A stretch of 64,000 nt of DNA from NCBI GenBank assembly GCA_007376535.1, contig VMGK01000005.1:2085-66084 (forward strand), written 5' to 3'. The first letter of the stretch is position 1. Every line of letters starts with the position of its first letter. Under the pieces are notes generated by a model. The model was not told the DNA's origin, did no database searches, and saw nothing but the letters and a program-made list of their open reading frames with translations. Positions 1,110 through 52,641 of this stretch are shown piece after piece. The position numbers and the translations under genes are program-made. Source of the DNA: Candidatus Berkelbacteria bacterium Licking1014_7. Its GTDB lineage: Bacteria; Patescibacteriota; UBA1384; GWA2-35-9; CG2-30-39-44.

Positions 1110-1284
1110 ATAATATCAATTTTCAAAATTATCTTGTTTGAAACATTGATAATTGAAACATTGTAAATTCAATGCCTGCCCGCCATAATTGCCTGAATGG
1201 AACACGAATGAATAATTCGAGTGGAATATCAAGCAATGAAGGTGGGAAAATTGAGAATTGAAAATTGAATTCAAGATTTTAAAC
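1110..1284 (+). repeat. About 170-bp repeat (core GAAACATTGTAAATTCAATGCCTGCCCGCCATAATTGCCTGAATGGAACACGAATGAATAATTCGAGTGGAATATCAAGCAAT...), copy 1, upstream of the LamG gene
   Basis: About 93% identical to 7170-7356, upstream of tyrS. Confidence 0.65.
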
Positions 1285-1338
1285 TTTACATTGTCATTTT
1301 GAGATTTGAATTTTGAGATTTGAATTTGAGATAGATTT

Positions 1339-2775
1339 ATGAAAAATTTCAACAAAAAACTCATTTTGTTCATTCTGGCGCTTTTTGTGTTGTCAACCGT
1401 TGGCTTCGGCGTCCAGCAAATTTACGCTTCGTTTTTGCGCGTTTCAAATTTGAATAAAGGTTTAGTCGGGCAGTGGGATTTGTCAAAAGAGAGTATGAAG
1501 TCGGCAACTGTTTTTGGGGACAGAACCCCTTACGGAAACAACGGCACTTCGGCAAACACTCCCACCCTTACCACTGACCAAAAAGGTCAGGCGAACAAGG
1601 CTTTGAGCTTTAATGGGACGAGTGATTATGTGGGAACTGGGACGAAAGTGTTATCTTCTTTCACTGCCATTACTGTAAGTGCTTGGGTTAAGTTTAATAC
1701 AACCGCAAATTATGACGGTTGGGTTAATCAGTGGGGGTCAGGCGTCTATAATGGATATGCTCATAGGATTTCAGATTCAGCCCCATATAAACAATACTTT
1801 GAGGTAAGTATAAACGATGAGAATCATGCTATTGGCGCTACGACTTTATCTACAGGAACTTGGTATCATCTTGTCGGGACGTGGACTAGCGGAGATAATG
1901 TTAGGGTTTATCTTAATGGAACATTAGATGGTACAAGCGCAACTGTGAAGACAGGAACTATTACGCCAAACAAAAATTTTGGAATAGGTTTCCTGCAATG
2001 GAGTGGAGCGAACCCTGCGAACTATCACAACGGCTCCATTAACGATGTGCGTATATACAATCGGGCGTTGACCCAAACCGAAATCACCCAACTTTACAAT
2101 CAATACGCTCCCAAACTCCAAGTCAACTCTTTAAGCAAAGGACTTGTCGGGCAGTGGAAACTCTCGCAGGCAAGCAAAAAAGGAACATTATACGGCGACT
2201 CCACCCCTTATTCCAACGACGGAACACCAGTAGGCACAACCCCCACCACCGACAGGCACGGACAAAGCAATATGGCTTTAAGTTTTAATGGGACGAGTGA
2301 TTGGGTGGATTTAGGAAATTTTTTAACGAATTGGCAACCACAAAGTATTTATACATTATCAGTTTGGTTTAAAACTACACTATCAGGTACAAACCAAGCA
2401 GTATTTGGTAATTTACAAAGTGGAGCACATGGCTATATTATTAGGATGCAAAATGAATCTATTTCTTATACTGTCTATGGTAGTGGAGTCAACGGAGTAT
2501 CTGCTTCAGCAAACTGGGTTAATATCCCAGATTCTAATTGGAATCATCTAGTCGTAATTGGAAATAATAAGGTTTTTAGTTTTTATCTAAATGGAAATCT
2601 CGTTCCAATAACTTCAAATAATTTAGTAGATGCTTCTTATACAGTGGGTGCTACACAAAGCACTAGAATAGGAGATGCATGGGTTTTTAAATTTACCGGC
2701 TCCATCTCCGATGTCCGCATTTACAATCGGGCGTTGAGCGCCGCTGAAATTTTGCAGTTGTATAATTTGTACTAA
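1339..2775 (+). CDS. Secreted protein with two LamG-like (concanavalin A-like lectin, Laminin_G_3) domains
   Basis: Signal peptide MKNFNKKLILFILALFVLSTVGFGVQQIYA. Two repeats of LVGQW.LS ... ALSFNGTSD.V ... DVRIYNRAL..EI.QLYN. Confidence 0.7.
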   Translation: MKNFNKKLILFILALFVLSTVGFGVQQIYASFLRVSNLNKGLVGQWDLSKESMKSATVFGDRTPYGNNGTSANTPTLTTDQKGQANKALSFNGTSDYVGTGTKVLSSFTAITVSAWVKFNTTANYDGWVNQWGSGVYNGYAHRISDSAPYKQYFEVSINDENHAIGATTLSTGTWYHLVGTWTSGDNVRVYLNGTLDGTSATVKTGTITPNKNFGIGFLQWSGANPANYHNGSINDVRIYNRALTQTEITQLYNQYAPKLQVNSLSKGLVGQWKLSQASKKGTLYGDSTPYSNDGTPVGTTPTTDRHGQSNMALSFNGTSDWVDLGNFLTNWQPQSIYTLSVWFKTTLSGTNQAVFGNLQSGAHGYIIRMQNESISYTVYGSGVNGVSASANWVNIPDSNWNHLVVIGNNKVFSFYLNGNLVPITSNNLVDASYTVGATQSTRIGDAWVFKFTGSISDVRIYNRALSAAEILQLYNLY

Positions 2776-3205: not shown

Positions 3206-3316
3206 ATCGCGCCCTCATCGCCGCCGAAGTCCAACAACTCTACAATTCCTACTAATCCCATTATTCTCTTAAACTTTTATACTCTTACACTTTGAAACTT
3301 TACCCTTGTATACTAT

Positions 3317-3413
3317 GAACCCATTGCAAATCTCTCCAATCTACTACAATATGCCACATTTGGCTACAAAATACTCATCGTTCGTCATCGTCCGCCTTGG
3401 CGGATGCTTCCTC
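3317..3413 (+). mobile_element. MITE copy, 5' half only (terminal repeat GAACCCATTGCAAA), abutting and truncating the four-helix-bundle gene
   Basis: 97 bp nearly identical to 21725-21821 and 24893-24988. Confidence 0.6.
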
Positions 3414-6637: not shown

Positions 6638-6760
6638 ATTAAATTAAAATTAAGAATGCAGAATGAAGAAATTAAATTATAATTAAGAAATTTTTGATTT
6701 GCCTGCCCTGCCAGAATGAAATCTACCGCGCCCGCCAAAGTGAAATCTAATTTGAGAAGA

Positions 6761-6801
6761 CCTGCCCGCCATCGCTATCGCTCAGGCGATTAGCAGGCGG
6801 G
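6761..6801 (+). repeat. REP-like nested hairpin CCTGCCCGCCATCGCTATCGCTCAGGCGATTAGCAGGCGGG
   Basis: Homologous copies at 7067-7107, 31930-31970 and, inverted, 46944-46984. Confidence 0.6.
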
Positions 6802-7169
6802 GGAATTATCACCTAATTCTGGAAGAGATTGAATGCGGGCGGGGTTATTTCAATTCTTAATTCTTCATTTTTATTTCTTATTTTGCATTTGCATTATAGC
6901 ATAAAATGGATTACAATAAAATAAAATAAAGCAATCTCAAATCTCAAATTTCAAAACATTAAAAAGATTTAAGAATATAGAATAATCCTAATTATACGAC
7001 TGACGCAAAACTACCTTTTTATATTTTCTTGGATAATCGCTAAAAGCAATCTCAAAATCCAAATCTCCCGCCCGCCATCGCTAGCGCTCAGGCGCTTAGC
7101 GGGCAGGCAAATCTCAAAGTGTAATGCAATGTCTAAAATAAAGGGGATTAAACCGCATTTTCAAATATT

Positions 7170-7356
7170 CCATATCAATTTTCAATGACACAATTTTCAG
7201 ATATTCCTGTTTGTTACATTGAAACATTGTAAATTCAATGCCTGCCCGCCATAATTGCCTGAATGGAACACGAATGAATAATTCGAGTGGAATATCAAGC
7301 AATAAAGGTGGGTAAATTGAGAATTCTAAATTGTAAATTGAATTCAAAGTTTTAAG
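7170..7356 (+). repeat. Copy 2 of the same repeat, ending 7 nt before tyrS
   Basis: See 1110-1284. Confidence 0.65.
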
Positions 7357-7362
7357 AATAAT

Positions 7363-8553
7363 ATGAGTAAATTAACAGCGAAAATTAGCGATTTATTGAC
7401 CCGCGGAGTTTCAGAAATTATTGTTAAGCGCGATTTGGAAAAGCAACTTTTATCCGGGAAAAAATTAAGAATTAAACTTGGGCTTGATTCAAATATTCCT
7501 GATTTGCATTTGGGGCACGCAGTCAATCTGAGAAAATTGCGCGCGTTTCAGGACTTGGGGCATCAAGCGATTTTGATTCTGGGCGATTATACCGCCGCGA
7601 TTGGCGATCCGTCTGGACAAGATAAAACCAGACCGGCGGTTGATGTTTGCCAGACAAAAAAAAACGCGCGGGAATTTTTGAGGCAAGCCGGCAAAATTTT
7701 GGATAAAAATAAAACCGAGGCGCATTGTAATTCCGAGTGGTTTTCTAAAATGAGTTTTTTGGATGTTTTGAATTTGGCGTCCAAAATGACAGTTAAGCAT
7801 ATTTTGAGTCATGACACATTCAGACGAAGAATTAAAAAAGACCAGCCATTTTTTATGCACGAGTTGATGTATCCTTTGATGCAGGGTTATGATAGCGTGA
7901 TGGTGGCTGCTGATGTGGAGTTGGGCGCCAGCGAGCAGAAATTTAATTTGCTTTCTGGCAGGCGGTTGCAGAGGGCATTTGGGCAAAAAGAGCAAAATAT
8001 TTTGATGATGAGGTATTTGATTGGCACAGACGGAAAAGAAAAAATGTCTAAGACACTTGGTAATTTTATCTCTTTGCGCGACAGCGCCAGCGAGATGTAC
8101 GGAAAAATAATGTCAATTCCAGATGTATTGATGCGTGAGTATTTTGAATTATGCGCTGATTTGGAAGTTGGGGAAATTGACAAGTTGATGGTTTCAGCCA
8201 AAACAGAGCCCAAAAAAGTTAAAGAACGATTGGCTGGCGAGATTGTTAAAATGTATTATAGTGAAAAAGATGTTCAATTGGCAAAGCAAGAATTTGATAA
8301 TGTTTTTGGCGCGGTTAGCGGCGCTCCCAGCAAAATTCAGGAAGTTGGTCTGGGCGCAAAAAAAATTGTCTTACTGGGCGCGTTGGTGAAAACCGGTTTG
8401 GTTTTGTCGCGCTCCGAAGCGCGCAGATTAGTCGTCCAGGGCGGGGTGAAAATTGATCAGCAAAAAGTTGATGATGTCAATTTGATAATTGATTTGTCGC
8501 GTCCGAAAATTTTGCAAGTGGGAAAAAGGAAGTTTGTTAGGATTAAAAGTTGA
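7363..8553 (+). CDS. tyrS: Tyrosyl-tRNA synthetase
   Basis: HLGH (DLHLGHAV) and KMSKT (EKMSKTLGN) class I motifs, plus a C-terminal S4 domain. Confidence 0.9.
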   Translation: MSKLTAKISDLLTRGVSEIIVKRDLEKQLLSGKKLRIKLGLDSNIPDLHLGHAVNLRKLRAFQDLGHQAILILGDYTAAIGDPSGQDKTRPAVDVCQTKKNAREFLRQAGKILDKNKTEAHCNSEWFSKMSFLDVLNLASKMTVKHILSHDTFRRRIKKDQPFFMHELMYPLMQGYDSVMVAADVELGASEQKFNLLSGRRLQRAFGQKEQNILMMRYLIGTDGKEKMSKTLGNFISLRDSASEMYGKIMSIPDVLMREYFELCADLEVGEIDKLMVSAKTEPKKVKERLAGEIVKMYYSEKDVQLAKQEFDNVFGAVSGAPSKIQEVGLGAKKIVLLGALVKTGLVLSRSEARRLVVQGGVKIDQQKVDDVNLIIDLSRPKILQVGKRKFVRIKS

Positions 8554-8849
8554 TATTTTAAAATTGGAAGTGAAATGGCAATAAACCCAAGTAAAGAATG
8601 CCGAGGGCAAAGCCCGATGATTCTTTACTTATATTTTGAGGTATAATTGATTTTCAGCACGCCCGCCCACTTGCATTCAATCTCTTACAATATCCTGTCA
8701 AATCCTAAATTATACAATGTCAAAGTCCAAAATCCAAAGACCAAATCAAATCCTAATGATTCAATGTCAAAGTCCAAATTTTTTGACATTAAGATTTTGG
8801 ATTTTGGTATTCATTTGGCATTTGGAACAATTTGGATTTTGACATTTAT

Positions 8850-8927
8850 TTGCCTGCCCCGTAAAATTTCTTAATTGCCTGCCCCGTAATCCGCCTCAGG
8901 CGGATGTGCGGGGTAATTTAATTTCTT
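8850..8927 (+). repeat. 78-bp palindrome-containing repeat TTGCCTGCCCCGTAAAATTTCTTAATTGCCTGCCCCGTAATCCGCC..GGCGG...CGGGGTAATTTAATTTCTT
   Basis: Second copy at 33737-33815 (upstream of pilB). This copy is upstream of argS. Confidence 0.6.
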
Positions 8928-9104: not shown

Positions 9105-10703
9105 ATGGATTTAGTTAAAAAAGTTATAGATGGAGCAGTTTTAAGATTGTACAAGTTGCGATCGCAAAAATATTCCTTGGATTATAAAGAGCAATTTGGC
9201 GATTTGTCTACTAATCTTGCGTTTGTTTTGTCGTCGCAAATTAAAGATGCGCCACAAAAAATTGCGATCGCAATTAAACAAAAAATTGAAAAAGAAAAAT
9301 TTTTTGAAAAAGTTGAAATCGCTAACGCTGGATTTTTAAATTTCACTTTATCAGGCGACACGATAATGAAAATGCTTGAAAGCGAAAATTTTAATCATTC
9401 AAAAAAAAGCGATCGCAAAAAAATACAAATTGAATTTATTAGCGCTAATCCAACCGGACCGCTTACTCTTGGCAACGCGCGCAATGCTTTTACTGGCGAC
9501 GCGATCGCAAAAATTTTACGTTGGTCAGGACAAGATGTTCAGACCGAATATTATGTCAATGATATGGGGAATCAGATTGAGACGCTGGGGGAATCAGTAA
9601 TAAATTCAAAACTCAAAACGCAAATGTCAAAACCACCCCTAAAAAATCAAAAATTTTATGTTGGAGAATATATTGAAGAAATAGGCAAAAGGATTAACGG
9701 GAAAAATGTGCAACAAATAGGGGAGCGGGGAGCAAAAATTATTTTACAGGATTATATAAAACCGCTGATTAAAAAATTAAAAATACATTTTGATCGTTGG
9801 CAAAGTGAAAAAGCATTACATCAAAGGTACGACATTGAACAAGAGGTTGAAAAATTGCGATCGCAAAAATTTATCCAAGAAAAAGAAGGCGCGCTTTGGT
9901 TTTTGACTAAAAAATTTGGCGACGATAAAGATCGGGTGCTCAAGAAAAAAAATGGGCAGTGGACATATTTGGCGTCTGATCTTTTGTATTTGATTGACAG
10001 AAAAAAGAGGGGATTTGATAAAATTATCATTCTTTTAGGCGCTGATCATTCTGGTTATATCAAACGAATTTTGGCTTTGGGGCAGTCGTTGGGTTTTAAA
10101 AAAGATCAAATAAAAATTTTAATTTGTCAGTTGGCGCGGATTAAAAAAGGCGAGAAAAGTTTGAGAATGAGCAAACGCGCTGGCAATGTGATATACTTAG
10201 ACGAGTTAGTTGGTAAAGTCGGGCTGGATGCGAGCCGATATTTTTTCTTGGAAAAAAATCCTAACACTCATCTTGATTTTGACGGGCAAAAAGCGCTGAA
10301 AAGGGATTTGACCAATCCGGTTTATTATATTCAATATGGATATGTTAGAGCGCAAAGTATTTTGCGCAAATGTCAAATTTCAAATATCCCTGCCCCGAAG
10401 CAAGCGGGGAAATATCAAACAAATTTCAAATCCCAAATTCTAAATTCTCAAGAAAAGCGGTTGGCTTTGAAAATTTTAGCCTTACGCCCTGCCCTGTCCG
10501 ACATATCCCAGACTTTAGAGATTTACCGGTTGCCTCATTTGGCGCTGGATTTGACGCGCGCGTTTAGTAATTTTTACGAAAAAGAAAGAGTGATTGATGG
10601 CGAAACAGTAAATCCGCTGAATTTGTTGCTTACTCAAAAATTTTATACATCTATTGATTTGCTTTTAGACATGATGGGAATTTCCAAACCGGAAAAAATG
10701 TAA
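9105..10703 (+). CDS. argS: Arginyl-tRNA synthetase
   Basis: SANPTGPLTLGNARNAFTGDAIAKIL (HIGH region), MSKRAGN, C-terminal anticodon-binding region. Start placed at MDLVKK (9105) rather than the ORF-track 9039. Confidence 0.9.
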   Translation: MDLVKKVIDGAVLRLYKLRSQKYSLDYKEQFGDLSTNLAFVLSSQIKDAPQKIAIAIKQKIEKEKFFEKVEIANAGFLNFTLSGDTIMKMLESENFNHSKKSDRKKIQIEFISANPTGPLTLGNARNAFTGDAIAKILRWSGQDVQTEYYVNDMGNQIETLGESVINSKLKTQMSKPPLKNQKFYVGEYIEEIGKRINGKNVQQIGERGAKIILQDYIKPLIKKLKIHFDRWQSEKALHQRYDIEQEVEKLRSQKFIQEKEGALWFLTKKFGDDKDRVLKKKNGQWTYLASDLLYLIDRKKRGFDKIIILLGADHSGYIKRILALGQSLGFKKDQIKILICQLARIKKGEKSLRMSKRAGNVIYLDELVGKVGLDASRYFFLEKNPNTHLDFDGQKALKRDLTNPVYYIQYGYVRAQSILRKCQISNIPAPKQAGKYQTNFKSQILNSQEKRLALKILALRPALSDISQTLEIYRLPHLALDLTRAFSNFYEKERVIDGETVNPLNLLLTQKFYTSIDLLLDMMGISKPEKM

Positions 10704-10707
10704 GGAT

Positions 10708-10811
10708 CACGACTGACACAAAAACTTAAATGTTAGTCCTTTTATATTTTCTTGGATAATCGCTTCTCAGCACGCTCGTCGCCCCAGCACGGCTCCTCGC
10801 TCGTCCTCGCC
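10708..10811 (+). repeat. Copy of the ACGACTGAC..TTCTTGGATAATCGCTTCTCAGCACGCTCGTCGCC... repeat
   Basis: About 90% identical to 46098-46195. Supplies the predicted start of the TIGR00725-like gene. Confidence 0.6.
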
Positions 10812-11393
10812 TCGCTCGGTCGCCGCGGCGAAAAAAACAAGGATTATCTAAAGTATAAAATTGGGGTTTCAGGATCTGCCAAAGACAATTGCGCGCCCGG
10901 TGCGTTTAAGAAAGCGTATGAAGTTGGTCGTGAAGTGGCGCGCCAAGGCGCGATATTGGTCAACGGCGCGACAACTGGTATTCCGCAAAAAGCGGCCGAG
11001 GGCGCCAAACATGCCAACGGATTGGTGATTGGGATTTCGCCCGCGGTTTCTAAAAAAGAGCATTTGAGAAAATATAAACTACCGATTGATTATTGTGATT
11101 TGATTATGTATACCGGTATGGATTACGCGGGTAGAAATTTTTTGTTTATTCGCTCAACTGACGCCACAATTTATATTTGCGGACGGATCGGCACCTTAAA
11201 CGAATTTACCATTGCTTTTGAGGATAATAAACCAATTGGGATTTTAACCAATACTGGCGGCACAACCGAAGAAATTGCGGATTTGCTACGTGTGGCAAAG
11301 CGCGGAAAAGGCAAAATTGTCTGGGACGACGAGCCAAAACGATTAGTGGAAAAAGTGATAGAGATGATTAGGGAGAACGAGAATCATCATTAA
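10752..11393 (+). CDS. TIGR00725/LOG-like Rossmann-fold protein (SLOG superfamily)
   Basis: IGVSGSA, VNGATTGIP and ICGRIGTLNEF motifs. The annotated N-terminus (MDNRFSARSSPQHGSS...) is encoded by an interspersed repeat, so the true start is uncertain. Confidence 0.5.
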   Translation: MDNRFSARSSPQHGSSLVLASLGRRGEKNKDYLKYKIGVSGSAKDNCAPGAFKKAYEVGREVARQGAILVNGATTGIPQKAAEGAKHANGLVIGISPAVSKKEHLRKYKLPIDYCDLIMYTGMDYAGRNFLFIRSTDATIYICGRIGTLNEFTIAFEDNKPIGILTNTGGTTEEIADLLRVAKRGKGKIVWDDEPKRLVEKVIEMIRENENHH

Positions 11394-12827: not shown

Positions 12828-13111
12828 TCGCAAAATTCACATAAGATACAAGAAACAAGATACAAGATACAAACAATATTCAAAATTCAAAATCAAAACA
12901 ATTCAAAATCCAAAAATATTTTTGACTTAAGATGATAGAATATAGATTTAAGAATGTCCGCCATCTGGCGGATTAGAAGTTAGAATGCGGGGGGTTTTAT
13001 TCTTTATTCTACATTCTTGATTCATTCATAAATCTTGAATCTTACTTCTTGAATCTTTTTGAAAATTGTGTCATTGAAAATTCGTAATTAGAAATTTTAT
13101 TTCATCATTCC

Positions 13112-16074: not shown

Positions 16075-16914
16075 TTAAGTTAATAAATTTGGTTGATCTA
16101 TTTTTGCTTCTACCCGTAATCGCCTGATTGCTAAATCGCAATATTCTTTGTCAATATCAACACCAATTCCTTTTCTGTTGTGCAAATATGAAGCAATAAG
16201 CGTTGTTCCGCTACCCAAAAATGGGTCCAAAACTGTATCACCAATAAAACTAAATAATTTTATACATCGTCTCGGCAATTCAACCGGAAATGGCGCAGGA
16301 TGTCCGCCCGCCCCCTTTTTACTTTGGCCGGAGAATGTCCAAACACCATTTGTCCAATCCATAAATTCCTGCTTTGTAATGTCATTTTTCCTACTCCCGC
16401 CAGTTTTTTTCCAGCTGTCTTTATATAAAACTAAAATCAATTCAACAGGGGCAATGACATAAGGAGCTGAGGCAGACATATATGAACCCCAAGCGGTGCG
16501 GCGAGAAATATTTCCCTCGTTCCAGATAATCGTTGAGTGATATTTCCAGCCAATATCTTTTGCGATTTTTGTAATATCAGCGCCGACTGATTTTTGGCCA
16601 CCTTTATTTTTATCAAGAGGAATATTTAGCAAAAATCGTCCTTCCTTTTTTGCTAAATCAAAACATTTCTTAATCCATTTTTTGGTAAATTCTAAATAGT
16701 CTTCGTAAGTCAAATTGTCAGCGTGGGAATTGTAATGAATGTCAACATTATAAGGCGGTGAAGTAATAATTAGATCAACTGAATTTCCGGGTATGGCTGT
16801 AATCTTCAAAATATCGGCTTTGAAAATAGAAATTCCGTCTTTTTCAAAATATGGTTTTTGAGATTTCATCTCATCAATATTGCTAACTTGTTTTTCCGCC
16901 ATTATATTTTGCAT
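16075..16914 (-). CDS. β-class N4-cytosine/N6-adenine DNA methyltransferase
   Basis: Motif IV IITSPPYN near the N-terminus and motif I DPFLGSGTT near the C-terminus (N6_N4_Mtase order). Confidence 0.85.
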   Translation of the reverse strand: MQNIMAEKQVSNIDEMKSQKPYFEKDGISIFKADILKITAIPGNSVDLIITSPPYNVDIHYNSHADNLTYEDYLEFTKKWIKKCFDLAKKEGRFLLNIPLDKNKGGQKSVGADITKIAKDIGWKYHSTIIWNEGNISRRTAWGSYMSASAPYVIAPVELILVLYKDSWKKTGGSRKNDITKQEFMDWTNGVWTFSGQSKKGAGGHPAPFPVELPRRCIKLFSFIGDTVLDPFLGSGTTLIASYLHNRKGIGVDIDKEYCDLAIRRLRVEAKIDQPNLLT

Positions 16915-17204
16915 AAAATTTTTGTGATAAGCACAGCAACAGGGTTTATATCAATAGCAATTGATGGTCGTCCCATTACTTTTGATTCAACAAGCGTTGT
17001 GCCGCAACCACCAAATGGATCAACAATAGAATCACCCTCTCGCGTATATTTTTCCGCTAAGCGAGAGACAATTTGCGGAATAAACTTTGCGGGGTAGCGA
17101 TGATAGCCGTGCGTGATATACGTCGTGTCCTTCCTTGTTTTATCGGAAAAAGACCACGAATAATCAATTTTTGTCTTTGCGAGTAATGTTGTTATTTGTC
17201 TCAT
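16902..17204 (-). pseudogene. C-terminal fragment of an N6_N4 DNA methyltransferase (AdoMet-binding half only)
   Basis: HRYPAKFIPQIV...DSIVDPFGGCGTT...IAIDINP corresponds to the last ~100 aa of the N6_N4_Mtase domain. No DPPY motif. Confidence 0.5.
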
Positions 17205-17300
17205 AGCTTTTTTTTGTTAATTCCTCAATTTTCAAAATGTCTGAATTGGTCGCCTTTCGACTTGGCTCAAGGCGACTCTGAGATTGTCGTCTGGTCGTAA

Positions 17301-17313
17301 TTACTGAACGAAG
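17301..17313 (+). repeat. Left arm of a 13-bp inverted repeat TTACTGAACGAAG (partner at 18708-18720, next to tRNA-Pro)
   Basis: Exact 13-mer with extended 17/19 match. The two arms bracket the MTase fragment and the Bro-N gene. Confidence 0.5.
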
Positions 17314-17378
17314 CTCGAACCCCTTTCCTTTTTGCCCGCCCTCGCTTTCCGATTCCGATTTTACCGCCGCCGGAATCC

Positions 17379-17723
17379 TTATATCACTTGTAATTCCATC
17401 TGTAAATTTTTTCTCTCCGCTTTCCCCGTCTTAAACAAATTCGCTTTTTCATCCAATTCTTTTATTCTTCTTTCGGAAATTTTGACATACTTTTCGTTAG
17501 TATCAATTCCAATATTTTTTTCCCCTAACTTTTTTGCTGCCACAGCAGTTGTTCCGCTACCCATAAACGGATCAAAAACTAAATCACCCTTATTGCTTGC
17601 GGAAAGTAAAACTTGCTGAATTAACTTGAGCGGTTTTTGCGTTGGATGTGCTTTTATTCCATTTTCATCTCTTAATCTTTCTTGCCCTCTATACACACCA
17701 AAAACCCAATCAGTATCTTTCAT
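17379..17723 (-). CDS. Stand-alone C-terminal half of an N6_N4 DNA methyltransferase (HPTQKP...DPFMGSGTT)
   Basis: AHPTQKPLKLIQQVLLSASNKGDLVFDPFMGSGTTAVAAKKLGEKNIGIDTNEKY. The catalytic DPPY half is absent. 4-nt overlap with the upstream Bro-N gene. Confidence 0.5.
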   Translation of the reverse strand: MKDTDWVFGVYRGQERLRDENGIKAHPTQKPLKLIQQVLLSASNKGDLVFDPFMGSGTTAVAAKKLGEKNIGIDTNEKYVKISERRIKELDEKANLFKTGKAERKNLQMELQVI

Positions 17724-21659: not shown

Positions 21660-21724
21660 AAATTAAATTCTATCAGATAAATAAAAATTGTCAAAAATTG
21701 TTGGTTCTGCTATGATGGTTATAA

Positions 21725-21877
21725 GAACCCATGGCAAATCTCTCCAATCTACTACAATATGCCACATTTGGCTACAAAATGCTCATCGTTCGTCATCGTC
21801 CGCCTTGGCGGATGCTTCCTCACGTTTCGTATTTTTCGCTCAAATGTGATCATATTTCGCTACGATTGAGAGTTTTG
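21725..21877 (+). mobile_element. Complete MITE (153 bp) with 14-bp terminal inverted repeats GAACCCATgGCAAA / TTTGCAATGGGTTC
   Basis: Terminal inverted repeats with a single mismatch. Internal CCGCCTTGGCGG hairpin. Homologous copies at 3317, 24893, 29093, 29291 and others. Confidence 0.7.
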
Positions 21878-23540: not shown

Positions 23541-23616
23541 GCCGAAGTAGCTCAGTGGTTAGAGCAACTGTTTTGTAAACAGTAGGTCGTGGGTTCGAAT
23601 CCCACTTTCGGCTCCA
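23541..23616 (+). tRNA. tRNA-Thr: tRNA-Thr (anticodon TGT), CCA encoded
   Basis: GCCGAAG acceptor, anticodon loop TTTGTAA, T-loop GGTTCGAATCC, 3' CCA. Confidence 0.85.
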
Positions 23617-23843
23617 GGCAATCGGCAGGCGGGTAAACTGCCAAGGTTCCGGTTCAAGCCCGGTGGTGGGCTTAGGCGATAGCAGGCGGGTAAACTATTG
23701 GCGTCAGTTAGATTCTGACAGGGGGCTTACTCTGGCGGATTGGGGTAAACAGCCGCAGGTTTCCCGCCTGATTTTGGCAAGAAACCGATGATAAAATAAT
23801 TTTTTCATTTTTCATTTTGATTTTTAATTTGTATATAGTATAT

Positions 23844-24627: not shown

Positions 24628-24892
24628 GTTGGTAAAAGAAGAGTTTGGCTCGGTCGCCACAGGCGACCTCGCCAGCCGATTTTTGGTTCAAAATCAAATT
24701 TTTTGCCTTTGTCCCCCACTAAATTTTAGTGGGGGACGCCAGAAGCGGGTTTTTCCTTAAAGTCCGCACAAAGCTTGGCTTGACCCGAGACGATTTAGTG
24801 AGAAAGTCAGCCGTCCAACACACAACCCTTACAAAAATTGAGAGTAATGTGATGAGAGTAATGTGATTAAAAAACCGTCGGTTATTACTCTG

Positions 24893-24988
24893 AACCCATT
24901 GCAAATCTCTCCAATCTACTACAATATGCCACATTTGGCTACAAAATACTCATCGTTCGTCATCGTCCGCCTTGGCGGATGCTTCCTC
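24893..24988 (+). mobile_element. MITE copy (5' half) between tRNA-Trp and the methyltransferase gene
   Basis: About 97% identical to 3317-3413. Confidence 0.6.
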
Positions 24989-25006: not shown

Positions 25007-26011
25007 ATGGAAACAAAATCAAAAAATCGAGCATCAAGAAATAGAACCATAACTTTAGATAATGGCGAGATTTCTCGCTTGAGAAAGAAACTTGTCAAAA
25101 TAGATAAGCCGGTTTCTATTTCGGATATTGAGAATAAAACTATCAATCAAGATATTTTTCAGATTTTGGATTTTTTGCCAGATAATTTTGTTAATTTAGT
25201 TTTTGTAGACCCACCTTATAACTTAAACAAAACTTTTAACTTAACTGCTTTTAAGGCAATGGAGTCCGAAAAGTATGAGGAGTGGTTAGATTCGTGGGTT
25301 CAAAAAATAATCCGTTTATTAAAACCAAATGCATCGGTTTATATTTGTGGTGATTGGAAATCATCGGGAGCAATTTTTAATGTGGTAAAAAAATATTTTC
25401 AAATTCAAAATAGAATAACTTTTGAAAGAGAAAAAGGGCGGGGCGCAAAATCAAATTGGAAAAATTGCTCGGAAGATATTTGGTTTTGTACATTTTCAGA
25501 CAAGTATAACTTTGATGTTGATGCGGTAAAAATGACAAGGAAAGTTATTGCTCCATACAAAGACGAAAACGGAAATCCGAAAGATTGGGAAATAACGGAA
25601 AATGGAAATTATCGCATAACCCATCCCTCTAATATTTGGACCGACATTACAATTCCCTTTTGGTCTATGCCAGAAAATACTGACCACCCGACACAAAAAC
25701 CAGAAAAATTGGTTGCCAAAGTTATTTTGGCCAGTTCAAAACCAAATGATATTGTTTTTGATCCGTTTCTTGGTTCAGGCACAACATCTGTTGTGGCAAA
25801 AAAACTTGGTCGTAAATATGTTGGTATTGATATAGATGAATTATATTGTTGTTTGGCAGAAAAACGGCTTGAGATGGTTGATAATGACAAGACAATTCAG
25901 GGATATTCTGACGGAGTTTTTTGGGAAAGGAATACATTAAACGAACAAAATAATGGTAAAAATAAAAAGTCGGAAAATAATCATAATTTACTTTTTGATA
26001 AACTATTATAA
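25007..26011 (+). CDS. β-class N4C/N6A DNA methyltransferase (full length)
   Basis: VFVDPPYNL (motif IV) then HPTQKP...DPFLGSGTT (motif I). Confidence 0.85.
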   Translation: METKSKNRASRNRTITLDNGEISRLRKKLVKIDKPVSISDIENKTINQDIFQILDFLPDNFVNLVFVDPPYNLNKTFNLTAFKAMESEKYEEWLDSWVQKIIRLLKPNASVYICGDWKSSGAIFNVVKKYFQIQNRITFEREKGRGAKSNWKNCSEDIWFCTFSDKYNFDVDAVKMTRKVIAPYKDENGNPKDWEITENGNYRITHPSNIWTDITIPFWSMPENTDHPTQKPEKLVAKVILASSKPNDIVFDPFLGSGTTSVVAKKLGRKYVGIDIDELYCCLAEKRLEMVDNDKTIQGYSDGVFWERNTLNEQNNGKNKKSENNHNLLFDKLL

Positions 26012-29290: not shown

Positions 29291-29424
29291 TTTATCTGCT
29301 ATTTTGGCTGCAAACAATTCAGAGCTCGTCAGTGTCCGCCAAGGCGGATGCCTTCTCGCTCTTCATTGTTTTCGCTCAAAATATCAAATAAAATTATCAA
29401 AAGAGAGTTTTATAATGGGTTCCT
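29291..29424 (+). mobile_element. Second, 5'-truncated MITE copy in tandem. Its 3' terminal repeat TTTTATAATGGGTTC contains the ATG of the downstream gene
   Basis: TTTTGGCTGCAAA ... TCCGCCAAGGCGGATGC ... TTTCGCTCAAA ... ATAATGGGTTC. Confidence 0.55.
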
Positions 29425-31862: not shown

Positions 31863-32121
31863 TCAAATATAAATCAAAAAGCAAATCCGCCAGCTGGCGG
31901 ATTAATCTCAAATCTCAAAATTCAAATCTCCCGTCCGCCATCGCTATCGCTCAGGCGATTAGCGGGCAGGCAAAATGACAATCCAAAATTCAAAACTCTA
32001 AATCCTAAATTCTAAATTCTAAGAAAATTATGTTCCCCATTTTCAACAACATCAATCACCAAAAATTTGACAAGCAAAACGGTTAGGTTGTATAATAGAG
32101 TTAATCAAAAGGAGAGGGAAA

Positions 32122-33596: not shown

Positions 33597-33736
33597 GATA
33601 GAAATTCAAATCTCAAATCTCAAATCTCAAAGCCACAGCGTAAAACTTAAAACCATTTTAAATTATCTAAGTTTTTACATTTGAGTTGTGGTTTTGAGTT
33701 TTACGTTTTAACATTTATGATTAAATTAATGTCATT

Positions 33737-33815
33737 TTGCCTGCCCCGTAAAATTTCTTAATTGCCTGCCCCGTAATCCCGCCAAGGCGGGATCTTCGGG
33801 GTAATTTAATTTCTT
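33737..33815 (+). repeat. Second copy of the 78-bp repeat
   Basis: See 8850-8927. Confidence 0.6.
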
Positions 33816-36093: not shown

Positions 36094-36272
36094 TAGAAAT
36101 TGAAAATTGAAAATTGATGTGGAATGTTTGAAAATTGTGTTATTGAAAATTGATTGAAAATTGAAAATTGAAAATTGAAAATTTCTATATAGATAGTTTT
36201 AAGTTTTACGCTGTGGCTTGGATATTTTACATTTTACTTTTCAGATATAAAATATGTTATAATGAATTCATT

Positions 36273-38447: not shown

Positions 38448-38730
38448 TAGTTTAAAGTGAAATTTTCAATTTTCAATTTTCAATTTTCAATGAATTCTCA
38501 ATGTTCAGATTGAATGAATTAAATCAAACAGCCCCGAAGATAAATTTCAAAGTCCAAATTTCAAATATCAAAACATTAAAAAGATTAATGAAACCCCCGA
38601 CATTCTAACTTTTAATCCGCCAGTGGGCGGATGGCGGACATTCTTAAATCTAACATCTTAAATTTTAAATCTGTAAAACTTTTACTTTTTGCTGTTTGCA
38701 TTTTGGATTTTGACATTTACTCAAGGGATT

Positions 38731-45149: not shown

Positions 45150-45300
45150 TTTTTCGTAGCGAAACGCAGTAATTTTGAGCGAAAATTGTGAAGAACGAGG
45201 AAAGGTATATGGAATATCCATTGACGAGTTATGAACAATTTGCAGCCAAAATTACAAGTTGTAGTAGAAAAGGTTATTGTGGAAGAAGTCTAACAAAAAA
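45150..45300 (-). mobile_element. Degenerate inverted MITE copy downstream of the pilus operon
   Basis: TTTGCAGCCAAAATTACAAGTTGTAGTAG and GCGAAAATTGTGAAGAACGAGGAAAG match the MITE core in reverse. Confidence 0.4.
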
Positions 45301-45469
45301 TAATCCGTAGACAGCAAGCGAGGTTCAGATTTCTGATTTTGGAAGAAGTCTAGTAAGTCTTGCCGAGGAAATATTGTTAAATTGTTTTTAACCTTGAATT
45401 TCGTAATTCAAGGTATTTAATCAATATTTACCAACTGCGGAAACCGCAGTTTTTTAAAACGGGAACAAT

Positions 45470-45994: not shown

Positions 45995-46097
45995 ACTCTT
46001 CAGCCAGAGGCTGATCCGCCTTTGGCGGACAATGTTTCAATGTTTATTGCATTAAATCAAAAATCAAACAGCAAAAAGCAAAAACAAATATCAAAAT

Positions 46098-46195
46098 TAC
46101 GACTTACGCAAAATTCGGCTTTATGTTATATTTTCTTGGATAATCGCTTCTCAGCACGCTCGTCGCCCCAGCGTGGCTCCTCGCTCGTCCTCGCC
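46098..46195 (+). repeat. Interspersed repeat family (ACGACTtACgCAAAA ... TTCTTGGATAATCGCTTCTCAGCACGCTCGTCGCCCCAGC..GGCTCCTCGCTCGTCCTCGCC) in the rplJ-rplL spacer
   Basis: Copies at 10708-10811 and, truncated, at 6996-7041. Confidence 0.6.
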
Positions 46196-46402
46196 TATAG
46201 ATTTTCCGCCAGAGGCGGATCTGCCTTTGGCATGACACTTTGACGGGCAGGCATTTTGATTTATCATTTTTGATATTTGATTTATTATTGTGTTATTAGA
46301 AAATATTATACGAAATTACGAAAATTAAAATAATTTTAACTTTGGGTTGTCATTTTGCATTTTGAGATTTGCATTTTGCATTTGACGACCGAAGGGAGGA
46401 AC

Positions 46403-46849: not shown

Positions 46850-47044
46850 ATTTCAATTCAACCAGAATTTCAATGTTAGATGCTATATTTTAGAATATTA
46901 AAATGATATTCAAATTTTTAGAAATAAATTTTAAATTTTACATTGTCATTTTGCCTGCCCGCTAATCGCCTGAGCGATAGCGATGGCGGGCGGGAGATTT
47001 GTGTCTTACATTTTGAGATTGAGGCAATTTCTATCAAATCAAAT

Positions 47045-49846: not shown

Positions 49847-49980
49847 TCTCAAATCTCAAAATTCAAAATGACAATGTAAAATTCAAAATGATTTTGCATT
49901 TTGGATTATATTAAGCGATTTTTTCCCGCACTGCGATACGGGCGGGAATGCCAAGGCGGGGGAGTGTTAACAAAATTAAG

Positions 49981-52461
49981 ATGATTTTTATAATAATTTT
50001 CGGGATATTGATCTTGGTCTTTGGTATAGGACTGATAATTTTTAGTTTGCAAAAAGAAGCGGCGCGCAAAAAACGGATTTTATCAACAGTTACTTTGCAA
50101 ATTACTGTTCCCAAAGAATCAACCCGCCGCGACGATCAAGACACTAGCAACGAACCAAAGGATTTTCGCGAGGCGATCGCGCCGACCGATCAATTTTTTT
50201 CTTCGCTTTCCTCGCTTTTTAACCGCGACTTTCGCCGCCAAATACTATCTGATCAAGATTATTTATCATTTGAAATTGTCTCGTATAAAAATGAAATTTC
50301 TTTTTACATTGCCTGCCCTAAGGATTTGATGAGTTTGGTTGAAAAACAGGTCAATTCGTATTATCCTTATGCTAATATTGAGCGGGTGCGCGGTCATAAT
50401 ATTTTTGCCATTGGCAATGGCAAGGTTTCAGCCAGTAACATTAAACTAGTCAAAAGATTTATTTTCCCAATAAAAACCTATCGCTATTTGGATTCTGATC
50501 CATTGAACAATTTGACTAACGCGCTTTCTAAAATGGGACAAAACGCGTCCGGCGCAATTCAGTTTTTGATTAAACCGATTTCAAATAACTGGCGGATGGC
50601 GCCAACGTCTGCCGCCAAGCAAGTGATGGAAGGAAAAAATACTTATATGTATTCAAAATGGTGGCAAAAGGCGCTGAGTAATTTTTGGGAAGGAACTTCA
50701 AAAAGCGCTTCGCGCGCCGCCACACTGCCCGGTCAAACCATGCAAACCGACAGCCAAGGCAATCAGATGTATCGCCACACCCCGGCGCAGGAAGAATTGA
50801 TGAAAGCGTTTAATGAAAAAGCCGCTAAGCCCGGTTTTGCGGTTGAAGCGCGGGTGGTGGCAGTTGCGCAGGATGAACAATCTGTTAAAATGCTTAAAAA
50901 TAATATTGTGAGCGCCTTTGCTCAATTTAACGCGCCGGCGTGGAATAGTTTCAGAACCTCTTCGGCTGAGCAAAAGCAAATTATTTTGGACTATATTACT
51001 CGTAATTTTAATAAGGGAAATGTGCTCAATTCTGAGGAGGTGGCGTCGCTTTGGCATTTGCCAAATAAATTTATCCAGACGCCGAATATCAAATGGTTGC
51101 AATCGCGCACTTTGCCCGCGCCCACCAATTTGCCAGAACAGGGTGTAGTGATAGGAAAAAGCGTTTATCGCGGCGAGGAAAAGTTGATTCGTTTTAAGGA
51201 CGATGATCGACGCCGTCATTTGTTTATGATTGGTAAAACCGGTGTTGGTAAAACCACTTTATTTGAAAATATGATTATGCAAGACATTTCTCAGGGCAAA
51301 GGGGTTTGTTTTGTTGATCCATTGGGCGATGCGATTGAATCAATTCTGCAAAAAATTCCCACTCATCGCGCCCGCGATGTGATTGTTTTTGATCCGTCTG
51401 ACACTGATTATCCGCTGGGACTTAATTTGCTTAATTGGGAAAAACCAGAAGAAAAGGATTTTTTAGTGTCTGAATGGTTGGAAATTTTCTACAAACTTTT
51501 TGATCCGGGTCGCACTGGTATAGTGGGACCGCAGTTTGAGCATTGGGGGAGAAATGCCGCGCTTTCAGTTATGAGTTTGCCTGAAGGCGGGACTTTGATT
51601 GATATTCCCCGCATGTTCACTGATGATGATTTTCGGGACAGAGTGATTGCGAATGTAAAAGATCCGGTCGTTCTGGCTTTCTGGCAAAAGCAATTAGTGA
51701 AAACCGCTGATTTTCATAAGTCAGAAATGTTTAATTATTTTATTTCTAAATTTGGACGGTTTATGACCAATGATTTGATGCGTAATATTATCGGTCAGGC
51801 GCGATCTACGTTTAATTTTCGACAGGTGATGGATGAGGGGAAGATTTTACTGATTAATTTGTCAAAGGGAAAAATCGGCGAGATGAATTCCAATCTTTTA
51901 GGTATGATTTTAGTGTCAAAAATTCAGGCGGGGGCATTCTCGCGCGCAGACATTAGCGAAGAAAACCGACGGGATTTTTACCTTTATGTTGACGAGTTTC
52001 AAAATTTTACCACTGATACATTTGCGACAATTTTGTCTGAAGCCAGAAAATACCGCTTAAATTTGAATATTACCAATCAGTACATTGCTCAATTAACAGA
52101 GAAAATTCGCGACGCGGTGATTGGCAATGCCGGCACATTGGTGGTCTATCGGATTGGCGCGGCTGACGGTGAATTTATGTCAAAAGAATTTCCCGGGGCA
52201 ACGATTGACGATATGGTTAATTTAGATAGATTTAAGACATATGTTAAATTGTTGATTGATTTGACGCCTTCAAAACCGTTTTCTATGCTGGGCATAAAAA
52301 CGAATTATCCTTCAAATCCACAAATGTCAGAGTGGATAAAACAGAATAGCCGGGCGCTTCACAGCCGGGCAAAGACGCAAGTTGAAAAAGAAATCGGCGG
52401 ACGCGGCGGCTTGACTGCGCCGCCGGCGCCCGAGCCAACCGAGGCGCTTCGCCAAACGTAG
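49981..52461 (+). CDS. Membrane-anchored VirD4/TraG-like (type IV coupling-protein-like, FtsK/HerA superfamily) P-loop ATPase, paralog 1
   Basis: N-terminal TM; Walker A FMIGKTGVGKTT; Walker B FYLYVDEFQNF; ARKYRLNL and TNQYIAQL (Arg-finger and sensor-like). Start could also be 49948. Confidence 0.65.
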   Translation: MIFIIIFGILILVFGIGLIIFSLQKEAARKKRILSTVTLQITVPKESTRRDDQDTSNEPKDFREAIAPTDQFFSSLSSLFNRDFRRQILSDQDYLSFEIVSYKNEISFYIACPKDLMSLVEKQVNSYYPYANIERVRGHNIFAIGNGKVSASNIKLVKRFIFPIKTYRYLDSDPLNNLTNALSKMGQNASGAIQFLIKPISNNWRMAPTSAAKQVMEGKNTYMYSKWWQKALSNFWEGTSKSASRAATLPGQTMQTDSQGNQMYRHTPAQEELMKAFNEKAAKPGFAVEARVVAVAQDEQSVKMLKNNIVSAFAQFNAPAWNSFRTSSAEQKQIILDYITRNFNKGNVLNSEEVASLWHLPNKFIQTPNIKWLQSRTLPAPTNLPEQGVVIGKSVYRGEEKLIRFKDDDRRRHLFMIGKTGVGKTTLFENMIMQDISQGKGVCFVDPLGDAIESILQKIPTHRARDVIVFDPSDTDYPLGLNLLNWEKPEEKDFLVSEWLEIFYKLFDPGRTGIVGPQFEHWGRNAALSVMSLPEGGTLIDIPRMFTDDDFRDRVIANVKDPVVLAFWQKQLVKTADFHKSEMFNYFISKFGRFMTNDLMRNIIGQARSTFNFRQVMDEGKILLINLSKGKIGEMNSNLLGMILVSKIQAGAFSRADISEENRRDFYLYVDEFQNFTTDTFATILSEARKYRLNLNITNQYIAQLTEKIRDAVIGNAGTLVVYRIGAADGEFMSKEFPGATIDDMVNLDRFKTYVKLLIDLTPSKPFSMLGIKTNYPSNPQMSEWIKQNSRALHSRAKTQVEKEIGGRGGLTAPPAPEPTEALRQT

Positions 52462-52641
52462 ATAAATCAAATATCAAAAATTAAAAATCAAAATGACATA
52501 TCAAAAATTAAAAATATTTTTACATTTTAATATTTGTTTTTGATATTTGATATTTGATATTTGATTTATTAATAATAGGGAAAATAATTTCCACCATTGT
52601 TGATTAAAAATAATACAACAAAAACCTAAAATAATAATTTT

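Follow-up and report, generated by a model that had tools for sequence, protein, structure and literature searches.

A duplicated intergenic element upstream of tyrS and a LamG-domain gene in Candidatus Berkelbacteria bacterium Licking1014_7, probably a long variant of a REP/BIME-like repeat family

What kind of sequence occurs twice, almost unchanged, directly upstream of two unrelated genes in Candidatus Berkelbacteria bacterium Licking1014_7, a metagenome-assembled genome (MAG) from an Ohio aquifer study (PMC5581439)? One copy of this element of about 170 bp (copy A) precedes a gene with a LamG domain, and the other (copy B) precedes tyrS. The stretch analysed, referred to as the window, comprises 64,000 nt of contig VMGK01000005.1 (assembly GCA_007376535.1, positions 2,085 to 66,084 of the forward strand). 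An earlier sequence-only reading had described the duplication and had proposed a mobile promoter cassette, a cis-regulatory leader or a small RNA. The results below suggest that the element is probably, though by no means certainly, a recently duplicated long variant (type III) of a lineage-specific, hairpin-forming intergenic repeat family resembling repetitive extragenic palindromes and bacterial interspersed mosaic elements (REP/BIME). Copy counts cover the genome sequence that was reachable, namely the window and approximately 5.3 kb of adjoining ENA contigs from the same population (approximately 69 kb in total).

In global alignment, the two intervals described earlier (1110-1284 and 7170-7356, both + strand) were identical at 156 of 169 ungapped columns (92.3%), in agreement with the figure of about 93% given before; with the 24 gap columns included, overall identity was 80.8%. 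The conserved unit is sharp-edged. Its high-identity core (1152-1267 in copy A and 7218-7333 in copy B, + strand) is gap-free, matches at 112 of 116 positions and contains a perfect run of 86 nt (1152-1237 in copy A). The four differences within the core fall at 1238 (internal loop), at 1247 (stem-extending in copy B) and at 1260-61 (tail). Weaker, indel-bearing similarity, traced by blastn, nhmmer and global alignment, extends the whole element to 1113-1282 in copy A and 7172-7355 in copy B (+ strand), and identity past these edges is about 52%. The sequences adjoining copy A are CTATAAT and ACTTTAC, and those adjoining copy B are ATTCCAT and GAATAAT. With genes assigned by Pfam, copy A is flanked by an NYN-domain gene and by the LamG-domain gene, whose ATG (1339) comes 56 nt after the end of the copy; for copy B, located within the 725-nt divergent spacer between the PBP1A gene and tyrS, the distance from its end to the tyrS ATG (7363) is 7 nt. 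The earlier description of each copy as standing just 5' of an unrelated gene, on the sense strand, was therefore correct. No core copy beyond these two was found in the window with blastn, nhmmer or a covariance model run with filters off, and the adjoining contigs contained zero additional copies of the element.

Folding as RNA and as DNA placed an imperfect hairpin of 68 nt at the center of the element (1179-1246 in copy A, + strand). Its equivalent in copy B (7245-7312) is lengthened to 7243-7314 (+ strand) by two added basal pairs, which result from the change equivalent to A1247T. The basal stem, CCCGCC/GGTGGG, contains one G-U pair and is followed, past an internal loop, by an inner stem (ATTGC/GCAAT, 1188-1192/1233-1237 in copy A) and an apical hairpin (CGAAT-GAATA-ATTCG, 1205-1219 in copy A). 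The predicted RNA fold has an energy of -35 kcal/mol; z was -3.7 for the + strand as RNA, -3.0 for the - strand as RNA and -3.6 for the DNA fold. On the 5' side lies an AT-rich hairpin (TCAATTTTCAA ... TTGAAACATTGA; 1114-1151, + strand), whose stems are common to copy B (7175-7228) and whose loop is different. The 3' tail (1246-1282, + strand; 7312-7355 in copy B) consists of period-7 repeats, (GAAAATT)n, which were detected with Tandem Repeats Finder (TRF) and are a generic intergenic repeat here. An intrinsic terminator was considered and rejected, as no T-run follows the stem on either strand and copy B, in addition, has no upstream + strand gene to terminate.

Relationship of the element to other sequences in the window was traced through short words that it carries. 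Each copy has one exact occurrence of the head, or tag, GCCTGCCC (1174-1181 and 7240-7247, + strand). The window contains 21 exact occurrences of this word, where 1.2 would be expected. Another word, GCCTGCCCSSTAA, was found at 7 window sites against 0 expected, and GCCTGCCCGCC, present in both copies, recurs at 9 sites with at most one mismatch against 0.47 expected, as the sequence-only reading had anticipated in attributing it to other REP-like units. The link to these units was upheld: the element has their head, 5' arm and flanking architecture. Of the proposals made in that reading, a cassette that is repeated and possibly mobile is the favored one. The GCCTGCCC sites are mostly intergenic (16-17 of 21), most of them at the 5' base of an imperfect palindrome, and approximately 14 loci with heads are present in the accessible sequence. 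Members of the family were defined as having, within AT-rich period-7 DNA, a head of the form TTT-GCCTGCCC-SS-(0-2 nt)-TAA and, after it, an imperfect palindrome with a stem that starts from CCC. Both copies of the element have this form, with caatGCCTGCCCGCcaTAAT, the stem CCCGCC/GGTGGG and (GAAAATT)n flanks. At the level of sequence, the members share the head, the imperfect GC-based palindrome and the AT-rich period-7 setting.

Three types were distinguished, of which type III is the duplicated element. Type I hairpins are 43 nt long and were located by alignment, folding and covariance model at 46953-46995 (+ strand, head at 46953), 31929-31971 (- strand, head at 31971) and 7066-7108 (- strand, head at 7108; GCCTGCCCGCTAAGCGCCTGAGCGCTAGCGATGGCGGGCGGGA), with a variant at 6761-6802 (+ strand, head at 6761) found by folding and covariance model. 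Type II hairpins are approximately 40 nt long and have a second head 25-36 nt upstream (8852/8877, + strand; 33739/33764, + strand; 49384, - strand; 55853/55817, - strand). In the type II unit at 8852-8916 (+ strand) the first head lies in a promoter-like site matching at 11/12 positions (8839-8867), and the second head is joined to the 40-nt hairpin (8877-8916); the unit at 33739-33804 (+ strand; folding and covariance model), with two heads and a hairpin, is located upstream of a pilB-like gene. Both 8839-8916 and 33726-33804 show two GCCTGCCCCGTAA heads 25 nt apart and then the 40-nt hairpin. Type III resembles type I, with the same head and 5' arm and approximately 36 additional apical bases, and the two types have GCCTGCCCGC(CA)TAAT(T/C)GCCTGA in common. 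The inner 5-bp stem varies on both sides yet stays paired (ATCGC/GCGAT, AGCGC/GCGCT, ATTGC/GCAAT), and in 8 of 9 family hairpins, which are not independent units, the head strand gave a stronger fold than the complementary strand. When a covariance model was built from type III alone, types I and II were its best non-self matches, in head orientation and with weak scores of 12-18 bits.

A related pattern of presence and absence was seen in an AT-rich module, TTTACATTGTCATTTTG-AGATTTGAATTTTGAGATTTGA, which carries a 41-nt hairpin at the point between its two parts in three instances and lacks it in three others, with no duplication at the junction. One of the three hairpin-free modules directly follows copy A (1284-1338, + strand), immediately 5' of the LamG ATG, and aligns with the hairpin-bearing modules. 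The 41-nt difference represents either insertion or precise loss of the palindrome. AT-rich period-7 arrays (TTTGAGA, GAAAATT, AAATCAA, TTTGATA and others) were observed in nearly every intergenic region, forming the matrix around the GC hairpins; examples are found at 1298-1332, 12843-12915, 36097-36183, 38461-38491 and 52464-52565. Family hairpins were also observed in one gene: the second of two paralogous TrwB/VirD4-like coupling-protein genes (49948-52461 and 53172-56096) has an open C-terminal extension of approximately 480 nt that holds, on its other strand, two hairpins headed by GCCTGCCC (55810 and 55846), and repeat DNA may have been fused into its reading frame.

Whether the element belongs to tyrS by descent was addressed with three syntenic relatives (L002, L088 and L089), whose tyrosyl-tRNA synthetases (TyrRS) are 61-66% identical to that of the window; the TyrRS of the window is 100% identical to the Licking1014_7 protein, and the nearest other TyrRS among 5.8 billion clusters is 66% identical. 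Gene order is kept in L088 from tyrS-argS-SLOG-RNase J through to holB, TPR and L33. The spacer upstream of tyrS measures 84-95 nt in the three relatives versus 725 nt in the window, and the element is missing there in all three. Each relative locus (6-16 kb) contains 0-1 GCCTGCCC sites and 0-3 period-7 arrays, versus 21 sites and 43 period-7 TRF rows in the 64-kb window. A block of the form TTGCATTATAGCA-N10-(C/T)TACAAT, readable as a promoter TTGCAT-17-TACAAT, is present upstream of tyrS in all four genomes. Its -10 box lies 9 nt from the tyrS ATG in L002 (block at approximately 9190-9218) and L089 and 25 nt from it in L088, and the 9-nt distance suggests that the tyrS mRNA of L002 and L089 is nearly leaderless. 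In the window the block is located at 6889-6917 (+ strand), approximately 445 nt before the ATG, and is separated from it by period-7 arrays, the reverse 43-nt GC hairpin (7066-7108) and copy B. The short, element-free spacers of the relatives, together with the displaced block, show that the element is lineage-specific extra DNA located between an older promoter and the tyrS start, and not an ancestral tyrS leader. The repeat DNA as a whole likewise stands out as extra in comparison with the three relatives.

Wider searches were in keeping with restriction to this lineage. An exact 22-mer of the element had 0 matches among GTDB species genomes, a 20-mer had 3 matches among JGI metagenome contigs, all attributable to chance and within coding DNA, and two k-mers had 0 matches in IMG/VR. 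The hairpin covariance model, applied to 300 kb of loci from the candidate phyla radiation (CPR), gave one weak match only, to a GC-rich hairpin (20 bits). No paralogue of the LamG gene closer than 37% was found.

Coding capacity and membership of known RNA families were then considered. The antisense open reading frames (ORFs) spanning the element (1116..1373 and 7114..7347) had been called unconvincing, and rightly so: they cross the shared core in different frames and contain no Pfam domain. No protein homologue of the core frames was found among the 5.8 billion clusters, in a search that missed the window's own ORFs too. As no frame is conserved between the copies in the way expected of a protein gene, the element is classed as non-coding. 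The Rfam/Infernal scan that had been recommended was performed with Rfam 15; at the gathering threshold only tRNAs and an L10 leader passed in the window, and at E<=10 the regions 1000-1400 and 6640-7420 gave best local matches of 12-20 bits versus thresholds of 37-144, so that the element matches no RNA family even at this permissive cutoff. No T-box covariance-model match was obtained around either copy at E<=10, in line with the earlier statement that the T-box pattern is not seen. A T-box leader of tyrS (RF00230) would likewise stand upstream of tyrS on the sense strand, whereas the element has no specifier/antiterminator arrangement and also precedes a LamG-domain gene. A link to tRNA-Tyr was rejected as well, since the tRNA that follows GCCTGCCCGCC at 23541 is tRNA-Thr(UGU) and the CATTG/CAATG hairpin 5' of the head has no anticodon-like loop displaying GUA. 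After this tRNA-Thr(UGU), at 23614-23770, three GGCAGGCGGGTAAAC-like repeats were observed, with a T-arm-like hairpin after each (e.g. CCGGTTCAAGCCCGG); they might be fragments of tRNAs or structures resembling tRNAs, and were left uncalled by ARAGORN and Rfam.

These data bear directly on the functional explanations proposed for the element. A cis-regulatory RNA leader specific to tyrS and the LamG gene, whether a riboswitch, a substitute for the T-box, an operator bound by a protein or a leader-peptide attenuator, would account for the sense orientation directly 5' of both genes, for the stable hairpin with its G-U pair on the sense strand and for a + strand ORF of 25-29 codons (MPARHNCLNG...) starting at 1172/7238. 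It is nonetheless very unlikely, given that the two genes are functionally unrelated, that the three relatives do without the element at tyrS, that no Rfam or T-box model recognizes it, that neither a terminator/anti-terminator alternative nor a U-tract after the stem is present, and that the head and arm also belong to repeats dispersed in other settings and orientations. The small ORF lacks both a ribosome-binding site and Tyr codons, on which grounds a leader-peptide attenuator was rejected, and the two substitutions within it between the copies produce one missense change and one premature stop. An independent small RNA gene present in two copies is barely credible: the stable structure (z approximately -3.6) and a weak promoter-like site upstream fit such a gene, whereas no intrinsic terminator follows the hairpin on either strand, no Rfam family matches, no conservation was detected outside this genome in the collections searched, and copy B lies only 7 nt from a start codon. 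Neither of these two proposals of the sequence-only reading is upheld. It is extremely unlikely, too, that the GCCTGCCC-headed palindromes act as recognition sites at the DNA level, with type III as one variant, whether as uptake signals analogous to the DNA uptake sequence (DUS) or as nucleoid-protein or gyrase sites of the kind found in BIMEs. The strong over-representation of the 8-mer (21 sites versus 1.2 expected), its frequent pairing and the presence of a type IV pilus gene cluster in the same window speak for this role. Against it, uptake sequences such as the Neisseria DUS and the Haemophilus uptake signal sequence (USS) are spread through coding DNA, whereas 16-17 of the 21 sites here are intergenic and lie at hairpin bases; their density of approximately 1 per 3 kb is sparser than that of known uptake sequences, and nothing ties the type III insert to such a role.

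The remaining explanation, a mobile promoter cassette whose own sigma-70-type promoter now drives the LamG gene and tyrS in place of the displaced ancestral tyrS promoter, appears unlikely, and it overlaps the repeat-family reading in that it describes the same object with an added function. Both copies contain a promoter-like site, TTGTAA-17-CATAAT (9/12), within the perfectly conserved run (1161-1189 in copy A, + strand, with a predicted start near 1196; 7227-7255 in copy B, + strand, with a predicted start near 7262, approximately 100 nt before the tyrS ATG). The register of GCCTGCCC in the spacer of this site (7 nt after the -35 and 2 nt before the -10) is the same as in the 11/12 site TTGACA-17-TAAAAT at 8839-8867; this latter site is part of a type II unit, lies 172 nt before argS and has its predicted start at the second head. 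Moreover, the spacers upstream of tyrS and the LamG gene contain no + strand site of at least 10/12, and the ancestral tyrS block is approximately 445 nt away, with two strong hairpins intervening. On the other hand, 9/12 sites are common in this DNA (6 versus 2.4 expected per 600 nt, and 10 versus 3.8 per 900 nt), the copies are identical at the site and so provide no independent support, and the same register occurs without promoter-like hexamers in type I and at the second head of type II. With a start near 1196 or 7262, moreover, the transcript would lack the 5' arm of the hairpin, and conservation of that arm would have no explanation. Canonical 12/12 promoters occur elsewhere in the window without any hairpin. 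In each of the three types, hexamers resembling a -10 box precede the heads by 4-9 nt; as no -35 partner accompanies them consistently, they were not used as evidence. The broader proposal that GCCTGCCC-tagged hairpins in general are mobile promoter or 5'-leader cassettes, with sigma-70-type promoters fixed relative to the tag and transcripts starting at or in the hairpin, which rewire core genes and whose tag marks a palindromic super-family outside GTAG/CGTC, is regarded as quite improbable. If it were true, tyrS would have changed from nearly leaderless to bearing a structured leader of approximately 100 nt (approximately 440 nt via the old promoter).

Several observations also count against assignment of the element to a REP/BIME-like repeat family. 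No transposase, Y1 or RAYT domain was found in any ORF of the window, and no direct repeat indicative of a target-site duplication flanks either copy. The words TCAATTTTCAA (1116-1126) and TTGAAAATTGA (1258-1268) form a candidate terminal inverted repeat, matching at 11/11 positions in copy A and 10/11 in copy B; however, the 11-nt word recurs at 35 sites in the window as a generic period-7 repeat, and the ends are unpaired in the minimum-energy fold. The inverted repeat was for this reason not taken as evidence for a miniature inverted-repeat transposable element (MITE). Only two copies of type III are visible in the approximately 69 kb, which leaves a high copy number unproven, and the family head next to the stems is GCCTG(CCC), with no GTAG, CGTC or complement of either adjoining. 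With types I-III few in number and of common descent, the apparent covariation of the stems and the strand asymmetry are weak as statistics. Finally, the placement of family members is slightly biased, the head strand being co-directional with neighboring genes at approximately 10 loci versus 4; both type III copies are in sense orientation 5' of genes, and sense members lie mostly 98-187 nt before start codons. Such placement could reflect a real role in expression rather than passive repeat DNA.

Among known repeat systems, the REP/BIME class appears to be the closest kind, followed by the longer palindromic repeats (Correia, ERIC, BOX and RUP). Canonical REPs, imperfect palindromes 20-40 bp in length, bear an unpaired tag on one side, either GTAG or CGTC (PMC3733652). 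The family described here is similar in that its members are short, imperfectly palindromic and marked at one end by a conserved tag that is partly unpaired; they are intergenic, occur in both orientations, are often doubled, are species-specific and exist as several variants per genome, and transcription into RNA hairpins is plausible in both cases (PMC3733652). It differs in its tag, GCCTG(CCC) instead of GTAG/CGTC, in the length of type III (68-74 nt, about twice the REP size; types I and II, at 40-43 nt, border on its upper limit), in the location of copies mostly upstream rather than downstream of genes, and in its host, a CPR bacterium of reduced genome with no RAYT gene in the accessible 69 kb. 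REPINs are mobilized by RAYT transposases. Because of its tag, its double size and the mostly upstream location of copies, the element stands outside the GTAG/CGTC REP super-families, though it is REP-like in behavior.

Correia elements (CREE/NEMIS, Neisseria) and ERIC/IRU sequences (enterobacteria) are imperfect palindromes of 100-160 bp that are intergenic and are co-transcribed into long RNA hairpins; Correia elements are bounded by defined terminal inverted repeats of 26 bp, duplicate a TA target, and can create promoters at their ends and alter the expression of downstream genes. The element shares with both the character of an imperfect palindromic intergenic repeat, whereas there is no sequence similarity, only the central 68 nt of type III are palindromic, and no convincing inverted repeat or target duplication of the Correia kind was seen at the type III copies. 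BOX and RUP elements of Streptococcus pneumoniae are built from modular sub-units, form stable structures, often lie near the 5' ends of genes and have reported effects on expression. Their modular make-up, predicted stable structure and position near gene 5' ends are paralleled here, in an unrelated host and with unrelated sequences, the modules being a GC hairpin and period-7 AT-rich arrays. Members of the IS200/IS605 family and their non-autonomous derivatives (PATEs) carry strand-specific sub-terminal imperfect hairpins by a short conserved sequence and insert without target duplication. The family described here likewise has strand-specific imperfect hairpins beside a short conserved sequence, and insertion of this kind would be compatible with the clean 41-nt presence and absence described above. 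It differs in that no TnpA/TnpB gene was seen and no left-end/right-end pair delimits a unit, so that any such mechanism is entirely conjectural here. Background on IS200/IS605-family elements is given in PMC6006769. A XerC/D-type integrase gene was noted just past the right end of the window.

Under the favored assignment to a REP/BIME-like family, the two type III copies would have arisen by recent duplication of repeat DNA, through transposition in trans, recombination or gene conversion, and not from selection for a gene-specific regulator. By their position alone the two copies would be bound to affect expression: the element would be either transcribed, forming a structured 5' leader for tyrS and for the LamG gene, or a source of their promoter; it is probably part of the two 5' leaders, or else a weak promoter source. 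For tyrS, the mRNA may start from the old block, in which case the element would be included in a leader of approximately 440 nt, or may start inside the element itself. The stable 68-nt stem-loop may, as a side effect, influence mRNA stability or translation. Annotations should list the element neither as a tyrS riboregulator nor as a small RNA. CPR (Patescibacteria) genomes are small and usually compact, and the spacers here are several-fold larger than in the syntenic relatives; the extra DNA is modular, with tagged GC hairpins and period-7 AT-rich arrays, and is located in part between the conserved promoter block and the ATG of tyrS, an essential gene, and in the rplJ-rplL spacer. If mobile or promoter-bearing, it would represent natural, repeat-driven rewiring of expression in a reduced genome by a REP-like family with a new tag.

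Further repeats were observed in the window. One of 103 nt is 95-99% identical among 3311-3413, 21719-21821 and 24886-24988 (and 29303-29380), ends in a TCCGCC-TTGG-GGCGGA hairpin and is found at the 5' ends of different genes or ahead of them; its position coincides exactly with breaks in ENA contigs from this population. The duplicated element, for its part, illustrates why such MAGs break up at intergenic repeats. A repeat of 71 nt beginning with TTATATTTTCTTGGATAATCGC is 97% identical between 10742-10812 and 46126-46196, with a partial copy near 7020-7045. One of its copies lies in the rplJ-rplL spacer (45995-46400), which measures approximately 360-400 nt and is full of GC hairpins and repeats; rplJ and rplL are normally co-transcribed, and the Rfam L10 leader is located at 45287-45428. 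Hairpins of the form TCCGCC-N4-GGCGGA follow gene ends at 12950-12976, 31879-31905, 38612-38645, 46020-46036 and 46210-46230, and may be the terminators of this organism, though without a clear T-run.

Two observations concern the surroundings of copy A. Upstream of the NYN gene, a 58-nt fragment (321-378) is 95% identical to the part of the LamG gene that encodes the signal peptide (1370-1427) and looks like a remnant of rearrangement or duplication. Just upstream of copy A, a strong promoter-like site, TTGACA-17-TATACT (11/12; 1068-1040, - strand), is directed into the 3' end of the NYN gene, antisense to it. Elsewhere, a row of N6/N4 DNA methyltransferase genes and fragments (one full length and two truncated; 16075-17723) adjoins a Bro-N domain gene, and a further methyltransferase is encoded at 25007-26011; together they may be a decaying restriction-modification or prophage remnant.

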